Part shown: positions 5,209 through 60,542 of the stretch, in pieces
Position numbering within the stretch: position 1 is the stretch's first letter
Layout: every line of letters begins with the position of its first letter
Assembly: GCA_043826565.1 (NCBI GenBank)
Contig: JBDRPX010000035.1
Coordinates: 31,299-95,298, forward strand
Origin: Candidatus Omnitrophota bacterium
GTDB taxonomy: Bacteria > Omnitrophota > Gorgyraeia > B26-G9
Length of the DNA: 64,000 nt
Reading direction: 5' to 3'
The notes under the pieces: model-generated
Database searches by the model: none
What the model was told of the DNA's origin: nothing
The model's input: only the letters and a program-made list of their open reading frames with translations
Made by a program: the position numbers and the translations under genes

Positions 5209-5386
5209 AAGCCTCAGGTCACAAGTTAAAACAAAAATACCTTTTTTCTCGAGTTTTCCTATCAGCGATGAACCTTTTTATTGTCATTTAGCTTTTAGTC
5301 TTTAGTTTCTTCTTTCTTCTTTTGCTTTTACTTCTTTCTGCTTTCTGCTTTTTAACTTGCAGCCTGTGACCTGCAACCTGTAACTT

Positions 5387-6400
5387 TTACACTGTTCTGC
5401 CGACAGCTTGAGCAATTTCTCCTACTTCTTTAACAAGTTTTTCAAAATTAACAGGATTCAAAGACTGCACCCCGTCTGAAGAAGCTTCCTCAGGCGCAGT
5501 GTGAACCTCTACAAGTAACCCATCACTACCAGCAGCTATTGCTGCCTTACTAACCGGGGTCACTAGCCCCCATTTACCGGTAGCATGGCTAGGATCAACA
5601 ATAATCGGCAAATGGCTAAGCTGCTTTATCACCGGCACCGCATTAATATCACAAGTATTTCTGGTATAAGTTTCAAAAGTGCGGATACCCCGTTCGCACA
5701 TGATCACATTAAAATTACCTTCGCTTAAAATATATTCCGCGCTCATTAAAAATTCTTTAATCGTAGACATCATCCCCCGTTTTAAAACAACCGGATGATT
5801 TGACTTCCCGACTTCTTTAAGCAGATTAAAGTTTTGCATATTCCGTGCCCCGATCTGCATAATATCCACATATTTAATCATTAATTCTACATCACGAGGA
5901 TCCATAATCTCGGTAACCGTAATCAGATTGAATTCATCAGCAACCTGCTTCATTATCTTAAGCCCTTCTTCTCCTAAGCCCTGGAATGAATAGGGAGAAG
6001 TCCTCGGTTTAAAAGCTCCGCCGCGCAATACGGTTGCCCCTAATCTCTTAACCTCTTTGGCAATTCCGTGCAAAGTTTCATAACTCTCTATCGCGCAAGG
6101 CCCGGCCATGATCACAATTTTTTTTCCGCCGATTTCCAGACCCTTAACTTTTATAACGCTGTTTTCCGGCTTAAATTCCCGGGAAACAAGTTTATATGGC
6201 GCTAATACCGGAATAACTTTCTCAACACCGGAAAAAGCTTCCAAAGGCTGAACCCGGACAACATCTTCTTCTCCGATAACTCCGATAATTGTCCTCTCGA
6301 CACCCTCGGAAACCATTGTATTCAATCCTAAGGAGTGAATTTTGTCAATTACTCTCTTCTTCTCTTCTTCAGTAATTTTCGGTTTAAGTACAATGATCAT
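5387..6400 (-). CDS. aroF: 3-deoxy-7-phosphoheptulonate (DAHP) synthase, class I-beta (KDO8PS-like) with an N-terminal ferredoxin-like regulatory domain
   Basis: 337 aa. An N-terminal ~70-aa ACT/FL-like domain (MIIVLKPKITEEEKKRVIDKIHSLG...) is followed by KPRTSPYSFQGLGEEGLKIM... and the DAHPS/KdsA barrel motifs, as in the Thermotoga-type enzyme. Confidence 0.85.
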   Translation of the reverse strand: MIIVLKPKITEEEKKRVIDKIHSLGLNTMVSEGVERTIIGVIGEEDVVRVQPLEAFSGVEKVIPVLAPYKLVSREFKPENSVIKVKGLEIGGKKIVIMAGPCAIESYETLHGIAKEVKRLGATVLRGGAFKPRTSPYSFQGLGEEGLKIMKQVADEFNLITVTEIMDPRDVELMIKYVDIMQIGARNMQNFNLLKEVGKSNHPVVLKRGMMSTIKEFLMSAEYILSEGNFNVIMCERGIRTFETYTRNTCDINAVPVIKQLSHLPIIVDPSHATGKWGLVTPVSKAAIAAGSDGLLVEVHTAPEEASSDGVQSLNPVNFEKLVKEVGEIAQAVGRTV

Positions 6401-6422: not shown

Positions 6423-7556
6423 TTAGCAAATTAACCTCGAACCGGCAAAGGTGAGAGGTCCTTCTTTTTTTAACAGTTTTTTAAATTCGCGCATAAATAA
6501 TTTATTTTCTTTCATTGATCCGATGGTAACCCGGATAAAATTTTTCAATCCCCAACCGGACATTTCCCGGACAATAATACCCTTCTGAAGCAGCTGCTGA
6601 TATATTGCCGTACTTTTTCTGCCGGCATTAAACAAAATAAAATTGGTTACACTGGGAACAAAAAATAATTTCAAAGCTTTAAATTCACCTGTCAAATATC
6701 TCATCCCCTCGCGTACGACCTTTTTTGATTTTTCTATATGCTTTTTATCTTCTAAAGCTGCCTCCGCAGCTGCCTGAGCCAAAGAGTTTGCGTTAAACGG
6801 TTCTCTGACCTGATTTAAATATCCGGAGATTTCCTTACTCGCCGCTGCCCAGCCGATACGCAAACCTCCCAGACCATATATTTTAGAAAATGTCCGGCTG
6901 ACAATAATATTGCCTTTTCGCAGATATTTCATTGTATCGGGATAATCTTTAACGCTGACATATTCAAAATAAGCTTCATCAAAAAATACAATAACATTTT
7001 CAGGCAATCCTTTTAAAAAATTCTCAACTTCTATTCTGTTGACATAACTTCCCGTCGGGTTATCCGGGTTGGCAATAAAAATCAACTTTGTTTTTGATGT
7101 GATTTTCGCTTTCATCGAAGCGAGATCATAACGAAATGCTTTTAGCGGAACACTTATTATGCGGGCATCACTCAGTTTTGCCGCCAGTTTATATATCAAA
7201 AAAGTTGGATCAGCAACAATTACTTCTTCACCTTTATTAACAAACGCCCTCAGTGCGAGAACAATCAATTCATCTGAGCCGTTTCCCACAATTATGTTTT
7301 CCGCCTTAAGCTTATATTTTTTTGCTAAAGCTTTTTTCAAATAGAAAGATTCCCCATCCGGATAACGGTTAATTTCGACTAAGGACTTTTTAATCGCAGC
7401 AACCGCGCGAGGAGAAGGCCCCAGGCTGTTTTCGTTGGAAGCCATCTTGTAAACTGTTTTAAGGTTCAATTCACGCTTAAGCTCAGATATCGGTTTTCCC
7501 GGTTTATACGGTTTTATTGTTACAACACACGGCCTTACTAAGTCTTTAATACCCAT
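6423..7556 (-). CDS. hisC: Histidinol-phosphate aminotransferase family protein; in this context possibly the aromatic aminotransferase
   Basis: NENSLGPSP...YPD motif; PLP-lysine region TFSKIYGLGGLRIGW; 377 aa. Confidence 0.85.
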   Translation of the reverse strand: MGIKDLVRPCVVTIKPYKPGKPISELKRELNLKTVYKMASNENSLGPSPRAVAAIKKSLVEINRYPDGESFYLKKALAKKYKLKAENIIVGNGSDELIVLALRAFVNKGEEVIVADPTFLIYKLAAKLSDARIISVPLKAFRYDLASMKAKITSKTKLIFIANPDNPTGSYVNRIEVENFLKGLPENVIVFFDEAYFEYVSVKDYPDTMKYLRKGNIIVSRTFSKIYGLGGLRIGWAAASKEISGYLNQVREPFNANSLAQAAAEAALEDKKHIEKSKKVVREGMRYLTGEFKALKLFFVPSVTNFILFNAGRKSTAIYQQLLQKGIIVREMSGWGLKNFIRVTIGSMKENKLFMREFKKLLKKEGPLTFAGSRLIC

Positions 7557-7570
7557 TACTATTTACTCCA

Positions 7571-7890
7571 ATTATTAAGGTTCTTTCTTGTTTAAGTTGA
7601 ATAAAAGAACCTGATTTACCGCCAAGTATTTCCTCTCGAAGCAGCTATTGGCGAGTTCTCGCCGTGGGCCGCTTCAGAGATGTAACTCGGCGGACATAGA
7701 TTTTCAAAAGATTACAGAGATACTAATATATCTAATTGTCGACACTAAAACTGCTTCTTAAGTTACATTGTCCAATCGGTATAATCAGTTTTTTAATCAC
7801 TGTAATCAGGGTCATTCTTGTTTTTATATGATCTCTGTACTTTTATTGTGTTACAGAAATTATCCCACTTCAAATAAGAATGACCCATTA
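7571..7890. repeat. Intergenic repeat element, copy 1 (pheA-hisC spacer), containing two conserved hairpins: GGTTCTTT/AAAGAACC (7579-7611) and GGGTCATTCTT/AAGAATGACCC (7809-7886)
   Basis: Shares ordered blocks with 25561-25770: GGTTCTTTC..GAAAGAACCTGATT, AGATTACA..GATACTAATA, GTAATCAGGGTCATTCTT and AAGAATGACCC. Copy 1 has an extra ~75-bp internal insertion. Confidence 0.55.
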
Positions 7891-9003
7891 TTAACGATCA
7901 TACATTTTTTGTACAGTATGCGGATAAGAGCCAAGTATCTTTAAAAAATAGCACTTTTTCTCCAGCTTATCCAATGCTTTTTTTACAATAATATCATTTT
8001 TATGCCCTTCCATATCCATAAAAAAGTAATAATCCCAAACTTTCTTTTTTGAAGGACGTGATTCAATTTTGGTCAGATTTATTTTCGCTGCTTTAAACGA
8101 AAGCAGCATATCATGCAAAGCACCAACCCGGTCTTTAATGGAAAAAACTACCGAAGTCTTATCCTTGCCTGTCTGTTTTGCTTCATTCTTACCGATCACT
8201 AAGAATCGGGTCATATTATGCGGGCTATCTTCGATTGACTCAGCTAAAACATTAAGTTTATAAACCCTGGCAGCCAAACTGCTGGCAATCGCGGCGCTGC
8301 CTTTTTCTTTTTGAGCAATCTCTGCCGCTCTCGTTGTACTCGATGAATCTATTAATTCTCGTGTCGGCAAATTGCTTTCGAGCCATAAACGGCACTGACC
8401 GAAAACCTGAGATTTGGAATATATGCGTTTTATCTGATTTAACGGACATTTGGCCATTAAATTATGAGAAATATCCAACAAAATCTCCGAGCAAATTTTT
8501 AGATCTGAATCAACCAGCATATCCAAAGTATGATTTACCGCGCCTTCAATGGAATTCTCTACCGGGACAACTCCATAATCACAATTACCGCGCTCTACTT
8601 CACTAAAAACATCGGTTATAGTGTTTGCCGGCTTATATTCAACCTGAGAACCGAATTTTTTCAAACCGGCAAGGTGAGTAAAAGTAGCCACCGGTCCAAG
8701 ATAAGAAACTCTCATCGGTTTTTGAAGCATAATTGTTCCCGACATAATTTCCCGGAATACAGCCATTAACGCTTCATTAGACAGCGGCCCTTTGTTAAAT
8801 TTTTTAATATTATTATATACCTGCTGTTCACGAGCCGGCATATATACAGTTTGTTTAAACTGCTCTTTTAATTTACCAATATCAATCGCTTTGCCTGTAC
8901 GTTTATTTAGAATTTCGATAAGCTGTTTATCAAGGATATCAATCGCCTTGCGCAATTTTGGAATGCTTGTCCTGAGATTGGCTTTCTTCTGGTTCTGCTT
9001 CAT
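7891..9003 (-). CDS. pheA: Bifunctional chorismate mutase / prephenate dehydratase (P-protein)
   Basis: N-terminal chorismate-mutase helix (LRKAIDILDKQLIEILNKR), a PDT domain (VSYLGPVATFTHLAGLKKFG), and a C-terminal ACT domain; 370 aa. Confidence 0.9.
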   Translation of the reverse strand: MKQNQKKANLRTSIPKLRKAIDILDKQLIEILNKRTGKAIDIGKLKEQFKQTVYMPAREQQVYNNIKKFNKGPLSNEALMAVFREIMSGTIMLQKPMRVSYLGPVATFTHLAGLKKFGSQVEYKPANTITDVFSEVERGNCDYGVVPVENSIEGAVNHTLDMLVDSDLKICSEILLDISHNLMAKCPLNQIKRIYSKSQVFGQCRLWLESNLPTRELIDSSSTTRAAEIAQKEKGSAAIASSLAARVYKLNVLAESIEDSPHNMTRFLVIGKNEAKQTGKDKTSVVFSIKDRVGALHDMLLSFKAAKINLTKIESRPSKKKVWDYYFFMDMEGHKNDIIVKKALDKLEKKCYFLKILGSYPHTVQKMYDR

Positions 9004-10608: not shown

Positions 10609-11588
10609 AATCCTACAACGTTTCTGACTTCATTCATCGTCGATTTAGCAATCTGTTGCGCTTTTTCTTTACCATCTGCGAGAATCTTCAATAACTGCCC
10701 TTTATCATCAAGCAAAGTCCGCCTTTTCTCCTGAATCGGAGCAAGATAATCTACCAATATCTGGCCTAATTGTTTTTTACAATCCGTACAGCCGATTTCC
10801 GCCGCCGAGCATTTTTTAGCAATCTCCTGAGGTTTTCCGGCATCGGCAAAAACTTTATAATAGCTATGTACATTGCAAACTTCCGGCCGGCCCGCATCTG
10901 TCTTCCGTAATCTTTGAGGATCCGTAAACATACTCATCACTTTTTTTCGTACGCAATCATCCGGATCACTTAACCCGATATAATTGTCATAGCTCTTAGA
11001 CATCTTTCGTCCGTCAAGCCCCAGCAAACGCGGCATCGCAGTCAATTCAGCCTGCGGCGCAGGAAAAACATTTTTCTTCATAACATTATTAAAACGTTCG
11101 GCGATTTTGCGGGTTAATTCAAGATGGGGTAACTGATCTTCACCAACCGGAACAACTTCAGCTTTATATAAGAGTATATCTGCCGCCTGCAAAACAGGGT
11201 ATCCCAAAAAAGCATAGTTATTGACCTCTCTGGTCTTCAATTCTCTTAACTGTTCTTTGTAAGTTGGGCATCGTTCCAGCCAGCCTAAAGGAGTCATACA
11301 GGAAAAAACCGTGAATAGTTCCAAGTGTTCGGGGATCTGAGATTGAATAAATAGCGTAGATTTTTTAGGATCTATGCCGCAGCTGAGCCAGTCGAGGACA
11401 TTATCCAATGAATACTCTCTAATATGCGCAGGATCTTTATACTCACTCATCAGAGCATGCCAATCAGCCACCATGAACAAACAGTCATATTTTTCCTGTA
11501 ATTGACTCCAGTTCTTAAGTGCTCCGACCAAATGACCCAAGTGCAGCTTACCCGTGGGGCGCATTCCGCTTAATATTTTTTTCTTCAT
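10605..11588 (-). CDS. trpS: Tryptophan--tRNA ligase (track ORF extends to 11627; the start is probably the ATG at 11586-11588 giving MKKKILSGMRPTG, 2 nt after the infB stop)
   Basis: RPTGKLHLGHLVGAL (HIGH-like) and KMSKS motifs. Confidence 0.9.
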   Translation of the reverse strand: MKKKILSGMRPTGKLHLGHLVGALKNWSQLQEKYDCLFMVADWHALMSEYKDPAHIREYSLDNVLDWLSCGIDPKKSTLFIQSQIPEHLELFTVFSCMTPLGWLERCPTYKEQLRELKTREVNNYAFLGYPVLQAADILLYKAEVVPVGEDQLPHLELTRKIAERFNNVMKKNVFPAPQAELTAMPRLLGLDGRKMSKSYDNYIGLSDPDDCVRKKVMSMFTDPQRLRKTDAGRPEVCNVHSYYKVFADAGKPQEIAKKCSAAEIGCTDCKKQLGQILVDYLAPIQEKRRTLLDDKGQLLKILADGKEKAQQIAKSTMNEVRNVVGL

Positions 11589-11590
11589 AT

Positions 11591-13552
11591 CTAAAGTCTT
11601 CGAACTATTTTTTCGACATGAAAACATTCAATAATATCTTCGGGAAGAATACTGGCGAAGTTCTCCAATGAAATACCGCATTCTAAGCCTTCACCAACTT
11701 CTTTAACATCATCTTTATAACGTTTTAATGATTCCAGTTTTCCTTCAAACAAACACTGCTCATCACGATATAACCTTACCAATTGTGCCGAACGCATGAA
11801 TTTTCCCTTTACCACCATACATCCGGCTATTTTACCAACCTTAGTGATCTTAAATATCTGCTGAACTTTGGCCCGCCCGATGAAAATTTCCTTTATTTTA
11901 GGTTCAAGCAATCCTTCCATACTCATGCGGACATCATTAATCGCTTCATAAATAATACGATATAACCGCACATCAACACTCTTATTATCCGCCTCTTCTT
12001 TAGCTTTAGATTCAATAGTGACATGAAATCCGATAATAACCGCGTCACTGGCAACAGCCAGCATTACATCTGATTCATTAATGCTGCCGACCTGAGAATG
12101 GATAATTTTGACCACAATGTCATTTGTGCCTAATTTTTCCAAAGAACTGCCTAAAGCCTCCAGTGAACCCTGGACATCTGCTTTTATAATAATTTTGAGT
12201 TCTTTTAGTTTTCCTTCCTGCGCCTGCTCAAACAACTGGTCAAGGCTTACCCGCTGTGAAGGCATTAATTTCTGCTGACGCTGTTCATCTTTTTTTTGCA
12301 GGGTTATTTCACGGGCTCTTCTCTCATCTTCAACCACATAAAAAACATCACCGACCTGAGGAACATAATCCAACCCGAAGATCTCGACCGGAATTGCCGG
12401 TCCGGCTTCGGTAACCCGTTCTCCCAAGTCATCTATCATCGCTCTTACTTTTCCGCAAGTTTGTCCGCAAACAAAAACATCCCCAATCTTCAGTGTGCCA
12501 TTCTGAACCAAGATAGTTACCGTCGGGCCGCTGCCCTTGGAAAGTTTACTTTCAATAATTATCCCCCGCGCCGGCTTATTGGGATTAGCCTTAAGTTCCA
12601 GGATTTCCGCTTCTAAAAGAATACTCTCCAGCAGATTATCTATCCCGGTCCCCACTTTTGCGGAAACCGCTACAGTTATGGTCTTTCCACCCCAATCTTC
12701 ACTCGTAAGATCATGCTCGGCCAAACCTCTTTTTACTTTATCAATATTAGCTCCGGGCAGGTCAATCTTATTAATGGCCACTACTATCGGGACCCCGGCA
12801 GCTTTAGCATGATTAATCGCTTCTATTGTCTGCGGCATCAGCCCGTCATCAGCCGCGACAACCAGGATAACGATATCCGTTACCTGTGCTCCGCGTGCCC
12901 TCATCGCGGTAAATGCCTCATGGCCGGGGGTATCTAAAAAAGTGATCGTTCCATTTTTGAGTTTAACTTTATAAGCGCCGATATGCTGCGTAATGCCGCC
13001 GGATTCTCTTAGCGTTAGATTGGACCGGCGAATAACATCAAGTAAAGACGTCTTTCCATGATCTACATGCCCCATAAGGGTAACTACAGGAGAGCGCGGC
13101 ATAAGCTCATCATCATCTGCATCTGATTCTTTATGTTGAGAAAGCAATTCTTCTTCTTTAGTAGGTTTCTCTTCTAATAAAACATCATATTCCAAAGCAA
13201 TTGCCTGCACCGTATCCTGATCTAGGCGAGTGTTAATATTGGCCATCACTTTATTTTTCATCAACTTTTTGATAATTTCGGTAGCGGAAATCTGCAGTTT
13301 AACAGATAGATCTTTCACTGTTAAAGGAAAAGAAACCAGGACTTTTTTCATTTCTTGTTTTTTCTTTTCTGCCTTCTCTTTTTTTACCTCTTCTTTTTTT
13401 CCCAGTAACTCATGACGTACTATTTCCGTAGTATCATCGTCTAAAGCACTCATGTGCCCCTTAACTTCAACATGCATACCCTTAAGTATTTTTACCAGTT
13501 CTTTACTGGAAACCCCGATTTCTTTAGCTAATTCGTATACACGAACACTCAT
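11591..13552 (-). CDS. infB: Translation initiation factor IF-2
   Basis: G-domain [28 protein letters not shown]; 653 aa. Confidence 0.95.
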
Positions 13553-22543: not shown

Positions 22544-22788
22544 ACGTAATTTTTTTAAACTTTTTTTATTTTTAACATAACGCATCACTAACAAAGAAGT
22601 TATAGACATACCATTAGCTGTTAAATTGTGGATAAGATTTATCATCAGCCTTATTTAGAAAAATCCTTCCAAATTTCAACAAAAATCTTCTGTCATGTTA
22701 GATTTTATCAATTTAAAGGCAATACTATAATGTAGGGATATTATTCTTGTAACTTGCAGCTTGGGACTTGAAACTTGTAGCTTTCAAC

Positions 22789-24141
22789 TTACAAACCATA
22801 CCTTTTAATCTTATAATCCAGATTGCGCCGGGTCATTTTAAGTTTTTCCGCGACAAGATTTTTATTGCCGCCAGATTCTGTGAGTGTCTTTGATATTAAT
22901 TCTTTCTCAAACTGTTCGACTTTTTCTTTCAAAGAATCCTCTTCAGAGACAGACAAGCTTGCCGAAACCGGGCTTTCCGTAATTCTCGCCGGCAAATCAA
23001 CCAGAGAAATTTCATCTTTTTCACTTAAAGCAATCGCGCTCTCGATGGCATTTTCCAGTTCCCGGACATTTCCCGGCCAATTATAGGAACGAAATACATC
23101 TAAACATTCCGGAGAAATTCTTTTCGCCGGAGTTCCCGCGGATTGATATTTCTTCAAAAAATGATTTACTAAAAACTCAATATCTTCTTTTCTTTCTTTT
23201 AGAAGAGGCAAATACAAAGAAATTACACTAATTCGGTAGAAAAGGTCCTTACGGAAATTCCCGCGTTTAACCTCATCCTCAAGGTTTCGATTAGTTGCCG
23301 CGATTATCCGCACATCAACTTTTGCACTCTTTGTTGCGCCTACTGATCTAATTTCTTTTTCCTGCAAAGCTCTTAATAGCTTAGTCTGCATCGCCGGTGA
23401 GGTTTCTCCAATCTCATCTAAGAATAATGTTCCCCCTCCGGCAACTTCAAACAACCCCTGCTTAGTAGAAATAGCCCCGGTAAAAGATCCTTTTACGTGG
23501 CCGAAAAGTTCGCTCTCCAGCAGCTCGTCCGGCAATGCCCCGCAATCAATAGAAACAAACGGCTTAGTTTGCCGCAAGCTATTAAAATGTAGCGCCTTGG
23601 CAATCAATTCTTTTCCCGTACCGCTTTCTCCATTAACCAGAATCGTAGTATTTGTTTTAGCCACTTTGTCGACCATATCAAAAACTTTATGCATGGGTTT
23701 ACTTTTTCCAATAATATTCGCAAAGCGGTAACGCTCCTGTAATTTTTTCTGCGTGGATTTATCTTCAGAAAATATTCTCTTTTGACTGAAAGCTTTTTTT
23801 ATTACTAATTTTATATCATGCAGTTTAAACGGCTTGGTTAAATAATCATACGCTCCGTAACGTAAAGCTTTAATCGCGGTTTCCACCGACGCGTACGCGG
23901 TCATCATCAAAACAATTATTTCCGGGTTGTGCATTTTCACCTGCCGCAGCAATTCAATCCCGTTCATCTCCTTCATCCGGATATCGGTAATAACCATATC
24001 AAACGGTTCTTTTTTAAAAACCTTTAGCGCCTCATCTGCCGTAGCCGCTCGTTTAATAACATATCCTTCGGTCTCTAAGACTACCGTTAGCCATTCCAAG
24101 AGATCTTTCTCATCATCAACTAAAAGAATTTTTCCGCTCAT
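22789..24141 (-). CDS. pilR: Sigma-54-dependent response regulator, PilR/NtrC family (REC + AAA+ + Fis-HTH)
   Basis: GESGTGKELIAKALH Walker A, GSFTGA sigma-54 contact motif, and a C-terminal HTH; 450 aa. Confidence 0.9.
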   Translation of the reverse strand: MSGKILLVDDEKDLLEWLTVVLETEGYVIKRAATADEALKVFKKEPFDMVITDIRMKEMNGIELLRQVKMHNPEIIVLMMTAYASVETAIKALRYGAYDYLTKPFKLHDIKLVIKKAFSQKRIFSEDKSTQKKLQERYRFANIIGKSKPMHKVFDMVDKVAKTNTTILVNGESGTGKELIAKALHFNSLRQTKPFVSIDCGALPDELLESELFGHVKGSFTGAISTKQGLFEVAGGGTLFLDEIGETSPAMQTKLLRALQEKEIRSVGATKSAKVDVRIIAATNRNLEDEVKRGNFRKDLFYRISVISLYLPLLKERKEDIEFLVNHFLKKYQSAGTPAKRISPECLDVFRSYNWPGNVRELENAIESAIALSEKDEISLVDLPARITESPVSASLSVSEEDSLKEKVEQFEKELISKTLTESGGNKNLVAEKLKMTRRNLDYKIKRYGL

Positions 24142-24210
24142 ATCCTAAACCTCATCTTTAATTTCTAATTTAATATTGATAAATATCTAATGTTTTTCCT
24201 ATTCTCTACT

Positions 24211-24262
24211 CTCAATTTTCAATTCTCAATTCTCAATTATCTGCTTATCTGCTTATCTGCTT
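24211..24262. repeat. Short tandem repeats: (T/C)TCAATT x4 followed by ATCTGCTT x3 (the latter overlaps the stop region of the kinase gene)
   Basis: Read directly: ctcaattttcaattctcaattctcaattatctgcttatctgcttatctgctta. Confidence 0.7.
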
Positions 24263-25533
24263 AACGGCAGAAAAACACTAAACGTCGCCCCTTTGCCCGG
24301 AGAGCTGCTTACATCAATATTCCCGCTGTGTTCTTTTATTATACTATAAACTATCGCCAATCCAAGCCCGACCCCTTTATCCTTATCACTGGAAAAAGGT
24401 TCAAACAGGTTTTCTTTCATCCCCTTATTAATACCAATTCCATTATCAATAACATCGATCCTGACCATATTCGTTTCTTTATCAATACTTCCCTTAATCG
24501 TAATCTTTCCCTTTTCTCCCACAGCTTCAACCGCATTAATCAAAAGGTTAAAAAACACTTGTTTCATATGCTGTTCATCGCAGGCTGTCTTGATCTTATC
24601 CACACTGTTTTCTTTTTCTATACTCACCCCGGATTTAAAATCCCGGCTATTTGTAACCAGCGTTACGACATCATCAATTACTTCTCCCAGGGAAACTGTT
24701 TGCATTATTAATTTACGCGGTTTAACATACTCCAGCAGGCTGTTAATTATATTATTCAACCGCGTAGTTTCTTTCATGATCAGACTAAACAGCTTCTGGT
24801 GGTTCCCATCTAAAACTAAAGTCTCACTTAAAGCTTCCACACAACCTGAAATAGACGCCAGAGGATTGCGGATTTCATGGGCGGTACTCGCGGCTAACTT
24901 ACCGATCGCCGAGAGACGGTCTTCTCTTCTGAGTTTTTCTCTTAAAGACTTGACTACTTTATCACGCTTTTTTACCTGACCGGAAATATAGGCGCTTAAG
25001 AACCCGATAACCGAAAAAATCGTAACCCGCAAATACAATAATGAAAACACATATGTGCTTTCATGCTGAGTTATCCCGGCAGCATCAACCGGCAATGGGA
25101 TAATCTCATAAAATTCCAGGCTGACAATTCCGCTATATAATGAGCTTCCTAATAAAGCGATTATTACAGCGGCCCGCGGAGAGATCAGAATACTGGCGGC
25201 AATAGACGAAAGCGGAAAAAGTATATCCAGAACCGATTCAATGCCCCCGGTATAATGAACCAATAAAGTTTCAATTAAAAGATCAATGATTATTTGGGAA
25301 TAAAGAAAAAATTTACTATACTTGCCGCTAAGCAGCAATACCGAGTAGGCAATAGTAATCAGGTATATAATGGCTACAAAAAAATACACCGGGGTTTGGG
25401 CTAAACCGAACAATGCGGTGTTAGCAATTAAAATAACCGTGGCAATCGTAAATCTGAAAATGATGATTTTATATAAATCCGCTTTATTACTTAACATAGA
25501 AACTATTATAAAGAAGGTTCCGGGAAAAGTCAA
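24253..25533 (-). CDS. pilS: Sensor histidine kinase with a polytopic membrane N-terminus (PilS-like, partner of pilR)
   Basis: Six N-terminal TM helices, HisKA (AHEIRNPLASISG), and an HATPase_c domain; 426 aa. Confidence 0.85.
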   Translation of the reverse strand: MTFPGTFFIIVSMLSNKADLYKIIIFRFTIATVILIANTALFGLAQTPVYFFVAIIYLITIAYSVLLLSGKYSKFFLYSQIIIDLLIETLLVHYTGGIESVLDILFPLSSIAASILISPRAAVIIALLGSSLYSGIVSLEFYEIIPLPVDAAGITQHESTYVFSLLYLRVTIFSVIGFLSAYISGQVKKRDKVVKSLREKLRREDRLSAIGKLAASTAHEIRNPLASISGCVEALSETLVLDGNHQKLFSLIMKETTRLNNIINSLLEYVKPRKLIMQTVSLGEVIDDVVTLVTNSRDFKSGVSIEKENSVDKIKTACDEQHMKQVFFNLLINAVEAVGEKGKITIKGSIDKETNMVRIDVIDNGIGINKGMKENLFEPFSSDKDKGVGLGLAIVYSIIKEHSGNIDVSSSPGKGATFSVFLPLSR

Positions 25534-25560
25534 ATTTAAAAAATATCTTCAGGCAGGAAA

Positions 25561-25770
25561 TCCATTTTCGGTTCTTTCGCATTTAGGGTGATTGAAAGAA
25601 CCTGATTACAGCGATTAAATACAGATTACACCGATATACTAATAGAAAACAATCTCTGTAATCTTCTTAATAATCTGTGTAATCAGGGTCATTCTTAAAT
25701 TTAACATAACAGCCTATAAGTCAATAAGTTATATAAATTTATTCACCCTAATTAAGAATGACCCCCATTT
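25561..25770. repeat. Intergenic repeat element, copy 2 (same family as 7571-7890), with hairpins GGTTCTTTC/GAAAGAACC (25570-25602) and GGGTCATTCTT/AAGAATGACCC (25686-25764)
   Basis: Shares ordered blocks with copy 1. Hairpin B directly follows the stop of the upstream gene. Hairpin A sits ~37 nt before the kinase start codon. Confidence 0.55.
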
Positions 25771-25789
25771 TCTCCGCTTAATATACCTA

Positions 25790-26284
25790 TTATTTCGGCA
25801 TATTCTTAGACATATTCTCTTTATACATCTGCTCGATCTTCTTTAATACCTCGGGATCTGTGTCCGGATTTTCCAGTTTTACTGCTTCCATCATATCTTC
25901 GGTTACCTGTTCAGGAGTCACTTCCGGCATGGGTTCGGCAATAGACGAGTATTCCAGATCTCCCATTAACATCTCCGGCCTTAACTCCAGATTTTTTAAC
26001 AGCTGTTCCTCCAGCGGGACAGTCATCTCATTCGGATCGACTTTTTTCCTCTGGGGATCTTTTTTGGGAAAATAATCGGTATTGCGGATAATCCTGGCTC
26101 GGGCGGTAACCGGCATATTATTAGCATGAGCTTTTAGTTTTTCCAGATTTTGACGGCTTTGAATCTTGTCAGTTTTTGCCGCGTCCTTATCCGGCGCGAT
26201 AATATAATTCTTTATCCCAAACATAATTACCAATACCAGCAGTAACATGGTAATTCCCACGGTCATTTTTACACTTTTATCCAT
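25790..26284 (-). CDS. Hypothetical bitopic membrane protein; paralog of 30373-30888
   Basis: N-terminal TM helix. Shares a YF(F)PKK....VDP motif with the protein at 30373-30888. Confidence 0.4.
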   Translation of the reverse strand: MDKSVKMTVGITMLLLVLVIMFGIKNYIIAPDKDAAKTDKIQSRQNLEKLKAHANNMPVTARARIIRNTDYFPKKDPQRKKVDPNEMTVPLEEQLLKNLELRPEMLMGDLEYSSIAEPMPEVTPEQVTEDMMEAVKLENPDTDPEVLKKIEQMYKENMSKNMPK

Positions 26285-26306: not shown

Positions 26307-29132
26307 TTAGAAATCCATCTTATAAAAGAAAGCACATTCCGCTTCCGCCCACAAAGATTCGGCCCCGCCGAAAAATACATCTGACGGTGAACGTGAAGCA
26401 CTTTTAAATCTCCCATCATATTCCATAAACTTGGAGGGATAGTAACTTTTTAAATAGTATGATCCGGAGTATGATGTACTCGGCGCTATCCTATCCCGGT
26501 CATCATAATACATTCCTGATTCACTGTAATAATCAACAAACTCATTATTAGCCGCGGTAAATCCATCGCTCTGAATTACAAAATAAGCACCCTTTAAATC
26601 CTGAGTTTTCGAACCCCAATATTCCAAGGCCGCGCCTTTACATCCCGCGCCCCGGGTATCCAGCCAGCGGTTAGAAGCAATTAGACAATTATAATCCTGT
26701 GATTGTGTAACACTATTGGCCATCATGCCGTAGGTAAATGATTCACTTTCCCCGCTATTGTCACCATAAGTCCAGGTAAATGTATCGGTCGCCGCCCCTG
26801 TTGTATCAGGCTTATCAAATTTACTTCTATATTGTGAATCTTTACTGTTTATTCTATTATATAAAGTCCTTTCATAGCTATCTGGAATTTCTGAATAATA
26901 ATCAGTATCATCAACTGCCCCGTCTGTATCCAAACGGTCCCGGTTTACCCAAACACCGTCGTCATTATCCGGATTAGTATCTGTCCAGTATTTAATGACA
27001 ATAGGCTCAGGCAACCAGGGGAAATCGAAAATTCTTTCTGCTTCTTTAACATACATATAGGGATAATCCGGATAATGATACGTTGCCGGAGTTACCTGCG
27101 GGTCATTAAAATCATCCGAAAGCAAAAACACTCTTTTTTTGGAAAGGATCGCGCTGGTGCGCCAATCGCACGGATTCGCTCCTCCGGTATTATAATCTCC
27201 TTTTAAATATATATTCTCTTCACTTAAAACCGTAAACCCGTAATGCTCTTTGGCGCGCGGTAAGACCTCCGCATTAGTAAGCCGCACCGGCACCTGGGAA
27301 TAGACAATTCCGTTTCTCGGATATACCGCGGTTTTCTGCATCTTTTGCAAATCTAATTCTAAAACTGTATTCCATTTATTCGTAAACGCGTTTATGAATT
27401 TGACTTTTTCGGCTACTTTTTCTCCTCCGGCAGCTTCATTAAAACGCTTTACTGCCGCATCCACACTATCTTCGATCACACTTTCCCATTCACTATAATC
27501 ACTGAATTCACCGTCAAAATTATCAGCCAAGCCTATATACGTACCATCTTTTTTCGCTAAAACAGAATAAGTTTTGGAAAACTCCGGGGTATCCAAATAC
27601 TCACCTCCGGTATTCTTGTCACGCAAAACATTATCAAGTTTATTTTTTGATAAAAATTCTTTCCAGGCTTTGGGCTGTTTTTTCGAATTAGTATAATTTA
27701 CCATCGCGTTTCCGTTATTCGAAGACCGGTCTGTGCCGTATCTTCCGTCACTGACAACCTCATCATTAAGCATATTCGCATATCCCGGAGTCCCATTTAC
27801 CGCGCTCCAAAAATCCGGCTTTTTGAACATCTCCCAATAGGTCGCGGCATCCGGATGAGCCGCTTTAAAATCCTCCATGGTAGGATAATCTAGGGGGTTA
27901 AGCATAACAACTTCCTTACTCGCGTCTATTTCCCACCAGCTTTTTTCCGCGCTAACCTGAGCGCCATGATTATCAGTAACATAAAATTCCAGCGGGTTCT
28001 CTCCCACAGCGCTTCCGGTTCCGTATTTACTGCCGAAGTATTTACCCCATTCCCAGGGGCTGTCTAGTTTGGCGGGAATTTCCACCCATTCTCTATCTAC
28101 CAGCTCTCCTTTTTCATCCTGCTGATACGGCTTAACCCAAACATTGTATCTGTTTAAAGGCGTACTATCATTATAAAACTCAGAATCCGGGTCTTTAGCA
28201 TAAGGAGCAATATTATTCTTAGCCTGATCATCACCGACAAAATGAGAATCGAAATCAGTATAAGCATAGGTATACCGAGGCCAATCGGTAACAAGATCTC
28301 TGGTGAAATAATAAGCATAGTCTTTCCAGCACCATTCATCTTTAGAATTATAATACCCAAAAGGCCCGGGAGTAAGCGTACTATCGTCACGGCCGCCCAT
28401 ACTCTGTAAATCATCCAAACGGGAGATCGGAGCTTGGCCGTCTTTTACTCCATCATAATTATCCGCATAATAAGGCGCCGGATATCCTGTGGCCGTATAA
28501 TAAATCGATCCCTCCGCACCCGTACTGATCTCCGATACATTTTCAATACGCATCTGGCTGTCTATATAAATATCACCGTTGGAATGAACACCTCCGCCGT
28601 TCAATTTTGAAGCCCGGCCCAAAGCATCGTATAAATCCAAATTATACGGGCTATAAACAAAAAAATCATAAATTCCCTGGCGGGATAAATAATAGGTTAT
28701 TACTCTGGTCTCCTGTCCGCAGGCTCCTTTAGAAACGATTACGGTTGTATCCGACTGGGTCTGATCCGGATAGGCCTTGACCATAAAATCGCCCTTATCA
28801 TGCACATAAAAACCATCACCGTCAAAGGAACAATCTGATCTGGTTTTTATTTTATAACTTTGATCCCCTGATTCTAAAGGGAGAAGCTTATCTCCGGCAT
28901 CATTCCACTTATGGGTATACCATTGCCAGCCCAGATTATACGATTCATGATACGCGTACGAGACGCCTTTTTCCGCCATATTCAAGGCTTTAGCCGCGTC
29001 ATTACTGCGGGTAACATTTTTGCGTTCCGTAACGATCAAAGTAAAAAAAGCGCTGGCCACCACAATAACAACAAATAAAACCATGTACGTGGAGATAAGA
29101 ATAGTACCTTGCTTTTTTCTTAGTGATATCAT
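26307..29132 (-). CDS. Giant (941 aa) pseudopilin-like protein: GspK/PilX-type N-terminal TM segment lacking Glu5, plus a large Y/W/D/N-rich extracellular domain (possible tip adhesin)
   Basis: N-terminus KKQGTILISTYMVLFVVIVVASAFFTLIVTERK resembles PilX_N/GspK. ~50% identity to the 907-aa paralog across the whole length. Confidence 0.55.
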   Translation of the reverse strand: MISLRKKQGTILISTYMVLFVVIVVASAFFTLIVTERKNVTRSNDAAKALNMAEKGVSYAYHESYNLGWQWYTHKWNDAGDKLLPLESGDQSYKIKTRSDCSFDGDGFYVHDKGDFMVKAYPDQTQSDTTVIVSKGACGQETRVITYYLSRQGIYDFFVYSPYNLDLYDALGRASKLNGGGVHSNGDIYIDSQMRIENVSEISTGAEGSIYYTATGYPAPYYADNYDGVKDGQAPISRLDDLQSMGGRDDSTLTPGPFGYYNSKDEWCWKDYAYYFTRDLVTDWPRYTYAYTDFDSHFVGDDQAKNNIAPYAKDPDSEFYNDSTPLNRYNVWVKPYQQDEKGELVDREWVEIPAKLDSPWEWGKYFGSKYGTGSAVGENPLEFYVTDNHGAQVSAEKSWWEIDASKEVVMLNPLDYPTMEDFKAAHPDAATYWEMFKKPDFWSAVNGTPGYANMLNDEVVSDGRYGTDRSSNNGNAMVNYTNSKKQPKAWKEFLSKNKLDNVLRDKNTGGEYLDTPEFSKTYSVLAKKDGTYIGLADNFDGEFSDYSEWESVIEDSVDAAVKRFNEAAGGEKVAEKVKFINAFTNKWNTVLELDLQKMQKTAVYPRNGIVYSQVPVRLTNAEVLPRAKEHYGFTVLSEENIYLKGDYNTGGANPCDWRTSAILSKKRVFLLSDDFNDPQVTPATYHYPDYPYMYVKEAERIFDFPWLPEPIVIKYWTDTNPDNDDGVWVNRDRLDTDGAVDDTDYYSEIPDSYERTLYNRINSKDSQYRSKFDKPDTTGAATDTFTWTYGDNSGESESFTYGMMANSVTQSQDYNCLIASNRWLDTRGAGCKGAALEYWGSKTQDLKGAYFVIQSDGFTAANNEFVDYYSESGMYYDDRDRIAPSTSYSGSYYLKSYYPSKFMEYDGRFKSASRSPSDVFFGGAESLWAEAECAFFYKMDF

Positions 29133-29157
29133 CGTACGCCTCCTCTATTGATAAAAC

Positions 29158-29847
29158 CTAATTGTTACGTGTAGAAACTCTGTTCGTTAATGTTAATCTT
29201 AACGGGCTCGCCAGATTTCTGCCCCTTACAGTATTTTTTTCCGTACGTATCGTAATGTCAAAAATCTCTACTGCGGAACCGGAAAGCGCTTGCGCGTATT
29301 TCTTGCCGCCGGTATCCCAATATAATCCTTCCACCCAAAAATTCGCTAATCCCCGGGCAATCTCCGTTGAAGAAACCAGTTTATTACTATCGTCCCAGAC
29401 CCGGCGCCACAAACGCCCCTCAGTATCCCCGGCAATAATACAATACTCCACATTATAATCAAGTTTCCCGTCTATCCCCCATTCGATACGGCCAAAATTA
29501 TCAAAAACATTTCCGTCACCGTCCCAGTCCACCGGCACCTGAAAAACAATACTCGGGCCTTGAAAAGTTATCGCTGCCCCCAACTGATCAATTGGCTTAT
29601 CATAAATAAAACAGAGATCTTTTTTGGACATCCGCAATTCTTTTACCATTATGATCATGGCTTTCCGCGCGTTTAGATCAACATCCATTCTCGCGGTATT
29701 ATTAGTAATAAATGTATTCTGCGATATAAGTAATGTAAAAAGCGAACCCACGATCACCGCATATATGCCCATGGATACAAGCATTTCCACCAGGGTATAG
29801 CCGCTGTTTTTTTTTGATCCCTTTAAAATCCTTTTTATTTTTTTCAC
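29158..29847 (-). CDS. Minor pilin / pseudopilin, PilW/GspJ-like
   Basis: Prepilin-type N-terminus SG|YTLVEMLVSMGIYAVIVG with Glu5; 229 aa. Confidence 0.6.
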   Translation of the reverse strand: MKKIKRILKGSKKNSGYTLVEMLVSMGIYAVIVGSLFTLLISQNTFITNNTARMDVDLNARKAMIIMVKELRMSKKDLCFIYDKPIDQLGAAITFQGPSIVFQVPVDWDGDGNVFDNFGRIEWGIDGKLDYNVEYCIIAGDTEGRLWRRVWDDSNKLVSSTEIARGLANFWVEGLYWDTGGKKYAQALSGSAVEIFDITIRTEKNTVRGRNLASPLRLTLTNRVSTRNN

Positions 29848-29850
29848 TTT

Positions 29851-30345
29851 TTAATCCCGGTTATAAATTGCCGCTTCTACGGCGCACGGAGAATCAATAT
29901 CTCCATTACCGTCAAGATCCGCCAAGGTTATCCCTAAAATTCCTTCTTTACCATTATTAATAGCTTCGCCGATAATTCTTTCCCCTTGTTTCCAGCAGAC
30001 AATTACTCTGATTCTTAACATCGCATCTGTTCCGGTTCCGAAACTTTCCAGCAAATCCACTTTTACTAATCCCTGATGCGCGACATTACGAGCCATAAGT
30101 TCATCCACATAAAAAATCTGTCCGTCATAACCTGCTCTAATATCATCAAAGGCTACGTTACGAATTTCATCCATAACCCCTTCCGCCGCGTTCATGCAGG
30201 TAACTGATAATTCCCCGGATTCGGCCAGGCGCGAAAGATACAATGCGGACTGAAAAGTAGTACCCACAGCCACAACCATAATAGCCATGGACATAATAAT
30301 TTCAATAATTGTAAATCCTTTTTCTTTCTTGATCCGCCTGCTCAT
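29851..30345 (-). CDS. Minor pilin / pseudopilin, PilV/GspI-like
   Basis: KG|FTIIEIIMSMAIMVVAVG prepilin N-terminus; 164 aa. Confidence 0.62.
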   Translation of the reverse strand: MSRRIKKEKGFTIIEIIMSMAIMVVAVGTTFQSALYLSRLAESGELSVTCMNAAEGVMDEIRNVAFDDIRAGYDGQIFYVDELMARNVAHQGLVKVDLLESFGTGTDAMLRIRVIVCWKQGERIIGEAINNGKEGILGITLADLDGNGDIDSPCAVEAAIYNRD

Positions 30346-33635: not shown

Positions 33636-33651
33636 AACATACTCTCCTTTT

Positions 33652-34332
33652 CTAATTACGCCAACAAACTCTATTATTTAAAACAACAGTAAGAGGGTTA
33701 TCCAAAGTCCTCCCCTTAATTGTATCTTTTTCCGCGGTAATATTAATTTCAATAAGTTCTATGGTTGTATCCACAACATATTTTTTTAAACCGGTATCAT
33801 AACTGTACCCGATAATTGAAAAATTTGAGATATCATTAGCCACAACTGTTTGCTCGACCAGAGTACTGGTCTCATCCCATACCCGGCGCAAGATCTCTTC
33901 GGCGACCGCGTCCCAGCAATATTCTATCTGCCAGTCCAGGTTATTTTCCGCTCCCCATTCCACACGCCCGAAATTATCCAGGGAATCTCCGTCCGCGTCC
34001 CAATCAACCGGAACCTGGAAAACAATACTTTTAGCATCACTGGCATCAATGAGAACACCGGCTTGATCCAGCGGCCGGTCATAGAGCGTGGTATTTAATC
34101 CCGACCCTACCCTAACCTCTTTAACAATAGAATTCATACCTTTTCCCGCCAGCCGTTTAACATCCCATTTCGCAAAACACTGCTGAGAAATCCGGTTATA
34201 AGATATAAGCATACTAAATAAAGAACCAATCACTACTGAATAAATCCCCATAGATACAATGATCTCAGTCAAAGTAAATCCCTGTTCTTTTTTTCTTTTT
34301 CTACATTTTAATATTTTTTTAATTAGGCTCAC
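33652..34332 (-). CDS. Minor pilin / pseudopilin, PilW/GspJ-like (module 1)
   Basis: QG|FTLTEIIVSMGIYSVVIG; 226 aa. Confidence 0.6.
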   Translation of the reverse strand: MSLIKKILKCRKRKKEQGFTLTEIIVSMGIYSVVIGSLFSMLISYNRISQQCFAKWDVKRLAGKGMNSIVKEVRVGSGLNTTLYDRPLDQAGVLIDASDAKSIVFQVPVDWDADGDSLDNFGRVEWGAENNLDWQIEYCWDAVAEEILRRVWDETSTLVEQTVVANDISNFSIIGYSYDTGLKKYVVDTTIELIEINITAEKDTIKGRTLDNPLTVVLNNRVCWRN

Positions 34333-34354
34333 AAATAACTCCTTTTAGTAAACG

Positions 34355-34819
34355 CTAACGAAAAATAACCGCGGTTTCCATAGCACAGGGCGAATCAATC
34401 AGGCCGTTTAAATTAGTATCTTCTCCGCTGTCTAAAACCCCGTTTAAATTAGCATCTTCTCCGATCATTCTGTTTCCCTGCCGCCAGCAAACAACAATCC
34501 GGAATTTTAAAAGAAAAGAAGGTTCCGTAAGATCTACAGTGATTGTTCCAAGATTAGGCACCCCTTTATTGGTCAGTTCATTTAAGGTGAATTGCGTATT
34601 ATGATAGTTTGGCGAGATATCGTCAAAGGGGACATTTTTTATCTCATCTCTTATCCCTTCAAGAGAATTCATAACCGGAGTAATATTGTCATTAAGTTCA
34701 TTAAGCTGTAGTAAATAACTTGTCGCCTGAAAAGATGAACCGATCGCTACAGACATTATGCCTACTGAAACAAGAATCTCTACTAGAGAAATTCCTTTGT
34801 TATTTTTCAATAACCTCAT
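34355..34819 (-). CDS. Minor pilin / pseudopilin, PilV/GspI-like (module 1)
   Basis: KG|ISLVEILVSVGIMSVAIG; 154 aa. SD GAGGGG immediately follows the leader terminator. Confidence 0.62.
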   Translation of the reverse strand: MRLLKNNKGISLVEILVSVGIMSVAIGSSFQATSYLLQLNELNDNITPVMNSLEGIRDEIKNVPFDDISPNYHNTQFTLNELTNKGVPNLGTITVDLTEPSFLLKFRIVVCWRQGNRMIGEDANLNGVLDSGEDTNLNGLIDSPCAMETAVIFR

Positions 34820-34900: not shown

Positions 34901-35050
34901 CTTCGGTAACCCGGCTGTCTGAAAAGGTATTACCTTTAGACCCGTGGCTTTGCTCCGGACTGACCAATGTCCAGAATCCCTAGCGCAAATCTCAACCGCT
35001 ATTATGGGATGTCCCCGCCTTTCGACGGGTTTGCCATTATCGGTAAAGGA
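34901..35050 (-). ncRNA. Candidate c-di-GMP-I (GEMM) riboswitch aptamer with an inserted extra hairpin
   Basis: Minus-strand RNA contains GGCAAACC, a CCGUC-GAAA-GGCGG tetraloop hairpin, GGGGAC, an inserted hairpin (AUCCC..UAGCG..CGCUA..GGGAU), GGAGCAAAGCCACGGGUCUAAAGG and CAGCCGGGUUACCGAAG. The last three are near-matches to conserved GEMM-I blocks (GGGACGCAAAGCC, GGGUUACCG). Confidence 0.5.
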
Positions 35051-36395: not shown

Positions 36396-36455
36396 ATTCT
36401 CCCCCTTTTAATTAGCTCATTGTTTATAGCTAATGGCTCATAGCATCTTTCCCAT

Positions 36456-36567
36456 CAACCATCAACTATCAACTATCAATTATCAACTATCAATTATCAA
36501 CTATCAACTATCAACTATCAACTATCAACTATCAATTATCAATTATCAATTATCAATTATCAATTAT
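36456..36567. repeat. Perfectly phased 7-bp tandem repeat, CAAYTAT x16 (minus strand: ATARTTG), in the pilB-pilC spacer
   Basis: Read directly: caaccat caactat caactat caattat ... caattat, 112 bp. Confidence 0.85.
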
Positions 36568-36607
36568 CTTATTATATATTAAATCCACAATATATAGAAT
36601 AACTTTT

Positions 36608-45121: not shown

Positions 45122-45393
45122 TAACCACCTAATCTATTTTATAATATTTGAGTATTGAATATTGAGAATTGAGAGTTGGGAATTTCAATAACTAGTTACC
45201 AGTAACCAGGAAACATAAAGGTTCCGCAAAAGAAGTGAAGCGTAAAAAACACGCAAATTAATTTTTGTTTTTGGCTTATAGTCTATTGAGTACTTAATAT
45301 AAATATCGACAAATAGTTATTGTTAAATAATACATTTTCAATCTTTTTTCTACATCCTATTCTCAACTATCAATTTTCAATTGTCTAGAATCA

Positions 45394-56183: not shown

Positions 56184-56310
56184 ATCAACTCAAAATTCAA
56201 AACGCAAAATTCAAAAATTCAACTTAAAAATCAAAAATAAAAACATTTTTAAAAAAGTTTTAAGTTTTGGATTGCAGTTTTGACTTTTGACTTTTTAGTT
56301 TTGAATTCAT

Positions 56311-59085: not shown

Positions 59086-59160
59086 AATCTAACCTCATTT
59101 TTCTATCTTCTATTTTCTTGTTTTTTGATTTTCTATACGCTATCCGCTATACGCTCCACG

Positions 59161-60444: not shown

Positions 60445-60542
60445 AACAAATTTCCCCTTCCACAACTATACTTGTCTTTTTCTGTTTTTATTTTTTGTTT
60501 TTATTTTTTGTTTTTTAGTCTATGGTCCATAGTCTATTGTCT

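Follow-up and report, generated by a model that had tools for sequence, protein, structure and literature searches.

A miniature inverted-repeat transposable element family very probably accounts for the structured element shared by two intergenic spacers of a Candidatus Omnitrophota genome

Two intergenic spacers in a 64,000-nt stretch of a Candidatus Omnitrophota genome (contig JBDRPX010000035.1, positions 31,299 to 95,298; hereafter the window) carry the same hairpins in the same order, which raises the question of why two unrelated operons, one for aromatic amino-acid biosynthesis (pheA-hisC) and one for a PilS-like sensor kinase, should share a structured element. The original prediction had left the choice between a mobile repeat, resembling a MITE (miniature inverted-repeat transposable element) or a repetitive extragenic palindromic (REP) sequence, and a regulatory or stabilising RNA. 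The analysis presented here indicates that the two spacers very probably hold insertions of a MITE family that is scattered through Omnitrophota genomes and on which a DDE transposase, most likely of the ISL3 family, is predicted to act in trans, and that the element is common to unrelated operons because of transposition and not because of common regulation. The element is identified as a MITE because it is small and non-coding, has terminal inverted repeats, is bracketed by duplications of fixed length and variable sequence, is scattered in both orientations, and is missing from orthologous sites.

The element occupies positions 7579–7886 in the first spacer (copy 1, 308 bp) and 25570–25764 in the second (copy 2, 195 bp, the canonical length), in both cases on the forward strand. 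A nhmmer profile of the family matches the two copies end to end (E 7.6e-38 over the full model length for copy 1 and 3.3e-52 for copy 2), so their similarity is not due to chance and the predicted homology of the two spacers stands. A bare 11-mer count was weak on its own, since 4 were observed where 1.2 would be expected, and as many as 4 turned up in 3 of 100 shuffles. Both copies are bracketed by 8-bp direct repeats. The 8-mer ATTATTAA flanks copy 1 at 7571–7578 and is repeated identically at 7887–7894, where it includes the pheA stop codon (TTA at 7891–7893 on the forward strand, TAA on the reverse strand), and the 8-mer CCATTTTC flanks copy 2 at 25562–25569 and 25765–25772. Target-site duplications had been proposed as something to look for, and an 8-bp direct repeat was found around all seven full copies of the family, with a different sequence at each; six are perfect and one matches at 7 of 8 positions. 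In the copies from other genomes (numbered by retrieved locus), the flanking 8-mers are TAAAATTA (L002), TAAAAATG (L006a), GTATTAAC (L006b), TTATTCTT (L009) and AAAATAAT / TAAATAAT (L003). The chance of an 8/8 match between flanks is approximately 2.4e-5 per site from base composition and 5e-6 empirically at random window positions.

The original prediction described two hairpins only. Folding resolves three successive palindromes, designated modules A, C and B, and both the central one (CTGATTAC...GTAATCAG) and the flanking direct repeats had been missed. Module A consists of GGTTCTTTC..GAAAGAACC, module B of GGGTCATTCTT..56 nt..AAGAATGACCC, and module C is made of GATTA motifs spaced about 10–11 nt apart, or roughly one helical turn. 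The order A, C, B on the forward strand of copy 1 corresponds to B, C, A along the direction of transcription of the flanking genes. In copy 1, module A (7579–7611) holds the left terminal inverted repeat GGTTCTTTCTTGTTTAAGTTG..., the tip of which recurs inverted as AAAAGAACC, and forms a 9-bp hairpin by pairing of GGTTCTTTC at 7579–7587 with AAAAGAACC at 7603–7611. Module C (7612–7808) is an imperfect palindrome, CTGATT..GTAATCAG, and is enlarged in this copy. Module B (7809–7886) holds the terminal inverted repeat of the right end (reverse complement GGGTCATTCTTATTTGAAGTGGGAT...), the first 11 nt of which recur inverted inside the element. Pairing of GGGTCATTCTT at 7809–7819 with AAGAATGACCC at 7876–7886 forms an 11-bp stem that encloses a loop of 56 nt. 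The modules of copy 2 lie at 25570–25602 (A), 25602–25686 (C) and 25686–25764 (B), with GGTTCTTTC at 25570–25578 pairing with GAAAGAACC at 25594–25602 and GGGTCATTCTT at 25686–25696 pairing with AAGAATGACCC at 25754–25764.

The canonical element is approximately 195 bp long, and its two ends are terminal inverted repeats, imperfect and some 25 bp in length. In copy 2 the left repeat reads GGTTCTTTCGCATTTAGGGTGATTG and the right repeat, read inward, GGGTCATTCTTAATTAGGGTGAATA. The left end and the reverse-complemented right end agree at 15–21 of 26 positions across the seven full copies (16/26 in copy 1 and 19/26 in copy 2). The first 9–13 nt of each terminal repeat recur inverted a short distance inside the element, and for this reason hairpins A and B stand at its ends. 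Because the ends are inverted repeats of about 25 bp, the conserved block in the loop of module B is the inner part of the right terminal repeat. The linear blocks that were originally reported as shared are present, except that copy 2 has GATATACTAATA in place of an exact GATACTAATA. The element lacks coding capacity; internal open reading frames (ORFs) reach at most 37 aa in copy 1 and 22 aa in copy 2, and none is common to both.

The extra length of copy 1, originally put at about 75 bp, proved to have two parts. The larger is a nested palindrome of 75–77 nt at 7619–7695 with 58% G+C that folds at −36.6 kcal/mol, and a further 36 nt or so of extra sequence, unmentioned in the original prediction, lies in the loop of module C. 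The nested G+C-rich palindrome is missing from the other six of six full copies in the alignment. No second copy of it was detected in the window or the retrieved loci, and its flanks did not show a clear target duplication. Possibly it is another small mobile palindrome, unrelated to the first, which copy 1 would have gained after its own insertion. In the equivalent place within the element, one L002 copy has an 18-nt insert, CCCTGCCTGCCGGCAGGG (about 7036–7053). In locus L022, which belongs to a relative, palindromic insertions at 11111–11340 and 13203–13465 enlarge the hisC-aroF and tyrA-cmk spacers, and one of them consists of inverted AAACCCT-type heptamers around CTGCCGGCAG, a core in common with the 18-nt insert of L002.

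The distribution of the family was examined by searching for the module B hairpin in 185,579 genomes, one per species. The scan returned eight loci, five of which lie in four Candidatus Omnitrophota metagenome-assembled genomes (MAGs), and these Omnitrophota loci contain the complete A-C-B element, beyond module B. With the profile search, L006 gained another full copy as well as a related fragment. In total the family profile identifies seven full copies and one truncated copy (E approximately 1e-38 to 1e-54), two in the window and six in four other MAGs, so the family is not limited to the two copies first described; no third copy was found by this search within the window. A scan of metagenomes recovered L016 (the same as L002) again, plus unrelated hairpins. 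All copies are intergenic, their surroundings are AT-rich and the neighbouring genes are unrelated. At least four are oriented one way relative to the flanking genes and two the other, with both window copies oriented alike. The suggestion that this could be an ordinary repeat family without positional preference was essentially borne out, as AT-rich intergenic DNA is the only preference seen. Copy 2 had no blastn match among 72,556 plasmids, and the module B hairpin pattern had no match in viral contigs. When viral contigs were scanned twice for end patterns, 94 loci were retrieved; neither a family match nor an ISL3 gene was present in any of them, and they are regarded as chance matches. 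A literature search for the 11-mers of the element returned unrelated primers only.

Orthologous sites without the element were found for both insertions. Four syntenic relatives share the gene order pilM-pilO-secretin ... scpA-scpB-pheA-hisC-aroF-tyrA-cmk and have HisC proteins 72–76% identical to that of the window, and their pheA-hisC spacers measure 21, 35, 38 and −4 nt versus 334 nt in the window. The spacer between the small ORF and the kinase gene is 17 and 154 nt in two relatives versus 292 nt in the window, and the 154-nt spacer retains a TTGACA..TATAAT promoter. None of the six orthologous loci examined (four pheA-hisC and two kinase) has a match to the family. In-silico removal of 7579–7886 and one duplication leaves ...CGT TAA TAATTGGAGTAAATAGTA ATG, an 18-nt spacer that keeps the pheA stop TAA, the GGAG and the hisC ATG. 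Copy 1 would therefore have inserted exactly on the pheA stop codon, within the tightly packed pheA-hisC-aroF operon, and the stop codon survives by virtue of its position within the duplicated target. Copy 2 would have inserted 36 nt upstream of the first hexamer of the kinase promoter. Exact-protein look-ups for PheA and for the 164-aa protein next to copy 2, made in search of empty alleles from the same species, returned no record. Two independent Logan contigs of the same organism (SRR26275510) end 29 nt (L001 1–29) and 48 nt (L132 1–48) inside the copies, as expected where an assembler meets a multi-copy repeat.

In the proposed mechanism, a DDE transposase acting in trans would recognize the ends of the element and cut the target with an 8-bp stagger, and repair of the stagger would leave the 8-bp direct repeats that are observed at every copy. 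Duplications of 8 bp are made by only a few families. The likeliest enzyme is predicted to be an ISL3-family transposase, given the GGYTCTT start of the repeat, the repeat length and the 8-bp duplication; this assignment is likely but unproven, and confidence in it is only a little better than even. The left end GGTTCTTTCG.. has GGTTCTT and 12–16 of 24 positions in common with genuine ISL3 ends. The genuine ends compared include those of an ISL3 element on a Nostoc plasmid (L033), GGCTCTTGCGTTATTTTTATGG and GGTTCTTGCGTTACTTTTATGG (the second also written GGTTCTTGCG..), the end GGCTCTTTGTCAATAAGG of ISEfa5, and the end GGTTCTCTAAAAGAATTTGTGGG of an ISL3 element in L015. The repeat of IS31831, which we take to be GGCTCTTCCGTTTTTAGAGTG, would resemble GGTTCTTTCGCATTTAGGGTG still more closely. 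Published ISL3 ends begin GGCTCTTCG and are associated with 8-bp duplications, as in ISArsp7 (PMC6305408). The ISL3 transposases used as queries comprised the ISPpu12 transposase of pWW0 as bait and those of eight further plasmid ISL3 elements. A tblastn search of these nine against the window and all loci gave a sole hit, in L015, and none in the Omnitrophota loci. A search of the window and the retrieved loci for full-length elements with perfect 8-nt tips, an 8-bp duplication and a length of at most 3.5 kb gave nothing relevant. The L015 gene (1069–1929, C-terminal ...THKFF*) encodes an ISL3-family transposase, and the end of its element is inserted in an ABC-transporter ATPase gene about 300 bp from a module-B-like GGGTCATTCTTT hairpin, an adjacency that looks coincidental.

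Several findings weigh against this account of a transposed family with an ISL3 enzyme. The ISL3 assignment draws only on end similarity and duplication length, and the window and retrieved loci yielded no transposase-encoding element that has these ends. The one ISL3 transposase recovered, that of L015, lies on an unrelated GC-rich contig and has different ends of its own, the right end of the MITE (GGGTCATTC; GGGTCATTCTT) departs from the ISL3-type GGYTCTT, and the IS6, IS256, IS1595 and IS66 families make 8-bp duplications as well. The relatives with empty sites are distant, at about 72–76% protein identity, and show absence of the element rather than a recent polymorphism of excision or insertion. 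Copies in a marine Omnitrophota MAG share 87% identity with copy 2, and the range across the other MAGs is 74–87%, whereas copies 1 and 2 of the same genome are only 68% identical. Identity that is higher between species than within the window implies subfamilies, horizontal spread or constraint. Despite its divergence, copy 1 has a perfect duplication and perfect ends, which points to different subfamilies and not to decay in place. Finally, the inner inverted copies of the tips are conserved as well as the outer ones, and the copy at L006 3849–4042 has a matched double change in the arms of module B, GGATC..GATCC. A model in which only the ends matter does not require these two features, which are the only hints that the hairpins themselves matter and which point to possible selection on them.

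The missing cognate transposase and the deviant right end leave a minority case, tentative but real, for mobilisation by another family that duplicates 8 bp (IS6, IS256, IS1595, IS66, ISAs1 or one not yet described) instead of ISL3. IS6 comes into consideration in particular through a related element at L006 5051–5157, which has another terminal hairpin, GGGACTGTTGCAAAATACAACAGTCCC, whose end motif is IS6-like; behind it come the same TGATTAC/GATTAC repeats, and the locus stops before the end of the element. This hairpin fits the IS6 end consensus GG..cTGTt..caaa (PMC7986276), and two MITEs derived from IS6, 227 and 336 bp long, have been recorded. The cTGTt and caaa motifs, however, occur in neither end of the MITE, which leaves duplication length alone as compatible with IS6. 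The resemblance of the left end to genuine ISL3 ends also speaks for ISL3 over these families, as do the imperfect repeats of typically 15–39 bp in ISL3 elements, which are like the ends found here, and a published ISL3 MITE of the same size class and duplication length (PMC11448079).

The remaining alternatives concern the structure of the element and what it might do. Both copies fold far better than shuffled sequences and do so equally well on either strand (z −6.1/−7.4 and −4.5/−5.4), which indicates a palindrome at the DNA level and not an RNA with a defined sense strand. No match to the element was obtained in Rfam, either for the whole window at the gathering score or for both spacers at E ≤ 1. 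Terminator-like sites, defined as a G+C-rich hairpin with a T tract, were absent from both strands of 7400–8000 and 25400–25900, and promoter consensus scans gave nothing inside either copy, which fits copy 1 being transcribed through within its operon. Candidate outward promoters picked by eye in module B were dropped, as their spacing was wrong. A covariation test on the MAFFT alignment of the seven copies, in which the module B gap is misplaced in two rows, gave 2 of 35 pairs and a covariation term of +0.6, and is uninformative because the stems are nearly invariant. The idea that a strand-specific cis-regulatory or small RNA, such as a riboswitch or leader, is common to the aromatic amino-acid and kinase operons could draw on this strong structure and on the like orientation of the window copies just upstream of start codons. 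It is nonetheless very improbable, since the opposite strand folds as well, the orientation is reversed in other genomes, Rfam has no match, the same junctions lack the element in syntenic relatives, and the 8-bp duplications at every copy are left unexplained. Moreover, the conserved kinase promoter lies downstream of copy 2 and so places that copy outside the kinase leader. The stabilising or regulatory RNA common to two operons that had been proposed is therefore not upheld, and if the element influences expression at all, this would be incidental, with stable hairpins in read-through mRNA as a candidate only.

Co-option of the MITE by the host is an unlikely possibility of a different kind, in which copies would be kept by selection and the hairpins would serve as an mRNA stabiliser, processing site or attenuator, or the GATTA array and palindromic ends would bind a host protein. 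The cross-species conservation of internal sequence (74–87% for copy 2 against other MAGs), the conserved inner arms with their one matched double change, and the 10–11-nt spacing of the GATTA motifs are in agreement with it, as is the position of copy 1 in an essential biosynthetic operon without an obvious terminator, where it must be transcribed through. Both orientations, unrelated neighbours, six of six empty orthologous loci, and nearly invariant stems with essentially no covariation signal argue the other way, and perfect duplications with intact ends are expected of copies that are active, or were so recently, without any host function. Improbable, too, is the proposal that the terminal hairpins are functional as self-complementary copies of the transposase tip marking an undescribed, cross-phylum class of hairpin-ended elements, with transposition dependent on hairpins or cruciforms, or with takeover by the host as protein-binding or RNA-stabilising modules. 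It draws on the inner arms, which are conserved and co-vary with the outer ones in L006 (GGATC..GATCC), and on GGGTCATTCTT(T) hairpins found across phyla. A REP or bacterial interspersed mosaic element (BIME) moved by a REP-associated tyrosine transposase (RAYT), or a palindromic element derived from IS200/IS605 and acting through single-strand hairpins, would account for the hairpin at each end and the wholly palindromic make-up. Those systems give no target-site duplication, whereas each copy here has a different one of 8 bp; IS200/IS605 inserts beside a fixed tetra- or pentanucleotide, which is not the case here; and the true terminal inverted repeats of about 25 bp and a length well beyond that of a REP make this origin extremely improbable. 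The MITE half of the mobile-repeat suggestion is accordingly retained, through its inverted repeats, 8-bp duplications, scattered copies and empty sites, and the REP half is set aside by the duplications and length.

Hairpins of the form GGGTCATTCTT..AAGAATGACCC also occur in contigs from outside the Omnitrophota, several with 59–73% G+C, and are mostly followed by T and contained within longer palindromes. They were observed at L008 4370–4490, L011 1946–2015, L012 1037–1126, L013 880–949, L014 10994–11067, L015 696–765, L017 4532–4602 and 4717–4787, L018 1141–1203, L010 4510–4579, L004 3490–3555 and L005 7816–7884. In L008 and L012 the hairpin has inverted arrays of 7–8-nt repeats (GTGTCGG or GCTCTGGC) at its flanks. 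No 8-bp duplications and no Rfam family were found for these hairpins, with sub-threshold noise from miRNA hairpins only. They may reflect chance, given the huge number of palindromes scanned, or a shared recognition motif.

The genes around both element sites are exclusively on the reverse strand, and each substantial ORF of the whole window (1–64000) is on that strand as well, an unusually long co-directional stretch. Copy 1 is flanked by pheA (7891–9003, reverse strand), which encodes chorismate mutase/prephenate dehydratase with an ACT domain, and by a hisC-type aminotransferase gene (TIGR01141; 6423–7556, reverse strand, ATG at 7556) that is followed by a gene for 3-deoxy-D-arabino-heptulosonate 7-phosphate (DAHP) synthase. 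Both flanking genes lie outside the element, and the GGAG ribosome-binding site and ATG of hisC are located just outside module A. The upstream neighbour of copy 2 is a 164-aa ORF (25790–26284, reverse strand, stop at 25790), and the downstream neighbour encodes a PilS-like sensor histidine kinase of 414 aa (24253–25497, reverse strand), after which comes a sigma-54 response regulator gene. The true start of the kinase is the ATG at 25497, which matches a recorded 414-aa protein (P0121) at 100% identity. Its longest ORF opens at a TTG at 25533, and this TTG is part of a promoter match and not a start. The promoter-like site TTGACT-17-TATAAT (25505–25533, reverse strand) matches a sigma-70-type consensus at 11 of 12 positions, is host DNA, and lies 36 nt downstream of copy 2 in the direction of transcription; a similar TTGACA..TATAAT site is present in the empty orthologous spacer of L027. 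Domain and family matches bear out the pheA, hisC and pilS kinase identities given originally, and the gene coordinates agree with the predicted placement of the modules: module B of both copies abuts the stop of the upstream gene (pheA, 7891–7893; the 164-aa ORF, 25790) and module A faces the start of the downstream gene (hisC, 7556; the kinase, 25497).

Recognition of the element as a MITE removes a false lead, as sharing it does not link aromatic amino-acid biosynthesis to a pilus kinase. A literature search found no publication pairing Omnitrophota with MITEs, and this is apparently the first active-looking MITE family documented in the phylum. Such repeats fragment short-read metagenome assemblies, with both Logan contigs ending inside the element, and they inflate intergenic spacers, where scans of uncultured phyla may take them for riboswitches or small RNAs. 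They also offer a handle for finding their transposase. The insertion on the pheA stop illustrates that elements of this kind can be accommodated in packed operons while stop codon, ribosome-binding site and start codon all stay intact.

Other repeats and structured elements were noted in the window. Tandem arrays of 7–8-nt units are present in many intergenic spacers, all upstream of reverse-strand genes, at 36454–36568, 5306–5387, 22746–22790, 24201–24263, 45143–45184, 56187–56304, 59133–59165 and 60485–60554. Their units include ATCAACT (16 times), ATTCTCA (5 times), TTATCTGC (3 times), TTGAGAA (5 times), TGCAGCC/TGTGACC/TGCAACC, CTATACG and TAGTCTA. The spacers of relatives hold comparable heptamer arrays, in some cases paired in inverted orientation (L022 13203–13465), and module C of the MITE is of the same flavour. 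Two cyclic di-GMP-I (c-di-GMP-I) riboswitch aptamers (RF01051, gathering score 35) were identified on the reverse strand at 830–924 (61.5 bits) and 34902–35045 (44.9 bits), the latter upstream of a cluster to which one set of a tandem pair of paralogous gene sets belongs. A multi-gene module of approximately 4.5 kb is duplicated in tandem (26307–30345 versus 30912–34819), with 71–83% DNA identity in patches (families D5, D7, D12 and D14), and it encodes proteins of 941 and 907 aa without a Pfam or NCBIfam match, plus small neighbours.

Several short repeats of other bacteria invite comparison with the Omnitrophota element. BOX (boxA-boxB-boxC), RUP of Streptococcus pneumoniae, the Correia/NEMIS elements of Neisseria and ERIC of enterobacteria are all short, palindromic, non-coding, multi-copy, intergenic and co-transcribed. 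BOX has a fixed module order, Correia and RUP are transposase-dependent MITEs that duplicate TA, and BOX and ERIC are without regular duplications. To our knowledge none of BOX, RUP, Correia and ERIC has an 8-bp duplication or these ends, or any sequence similarity to the element described here. REP and BIME sequences resemble it in being palindromic, intergenic and hairpin-forming; unlike it, REPs are 20–40 nt long, make no target duplication and lack terminal inverted repeats of the kind that transposons have.

Closer parallels are found among ISL3 elements. ISEfa5, ISArsp7, ISPpu12/ISPst2 and the Nostoc element of L033 have, like the Omnitrophota element, 8-bp duplications and imperfect terminal repeats; theirs are 15–39 bp long and start with GG, often GGYTCTT, a motif seen here at the left end and departed from at the right. 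In some ISL3 elements a small hairpin lies directly at the left end, as does GGACTGATGAATCAAATTTTGATTCATC in L032. These elements are autonomous, 1.2–3 kb in length, and encode a DDE transposase (PF01610), whereas the Omnitrophota element is without coding capacity. In Microcystis aeruginosa PCC 7806, a 187-bp MITE with such ends and 8-nt duplications has been attributed to ISL3 (PMC11448079), and cognate ISL3 copies with matching ends are identified there, whereas none was found for the Omnitrophota MITE. The Omnitrophota element differs from it in phylum, in unrelated sequence past the tip, in its repeats of about 25 bp, and in its right end, GGGTCATTC; its tips are duplicated inverted to give two terminal hairpins, and its core consists of phased GATTA motifs. 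In common with the Microcystis MITE it is about 190 bp long, non-coding, mostly intergenic and multi-copy, with 8-nt duplications, and the Microcystis element has a predicted stem-loop and imperfect repeats starting GGCTCTTCG, to which the tips GGTTCTTTCG / GGCTCTTTCG are comparable. The element is a new family, in a phylum seemingly without described MITEs, of a well-known kind.

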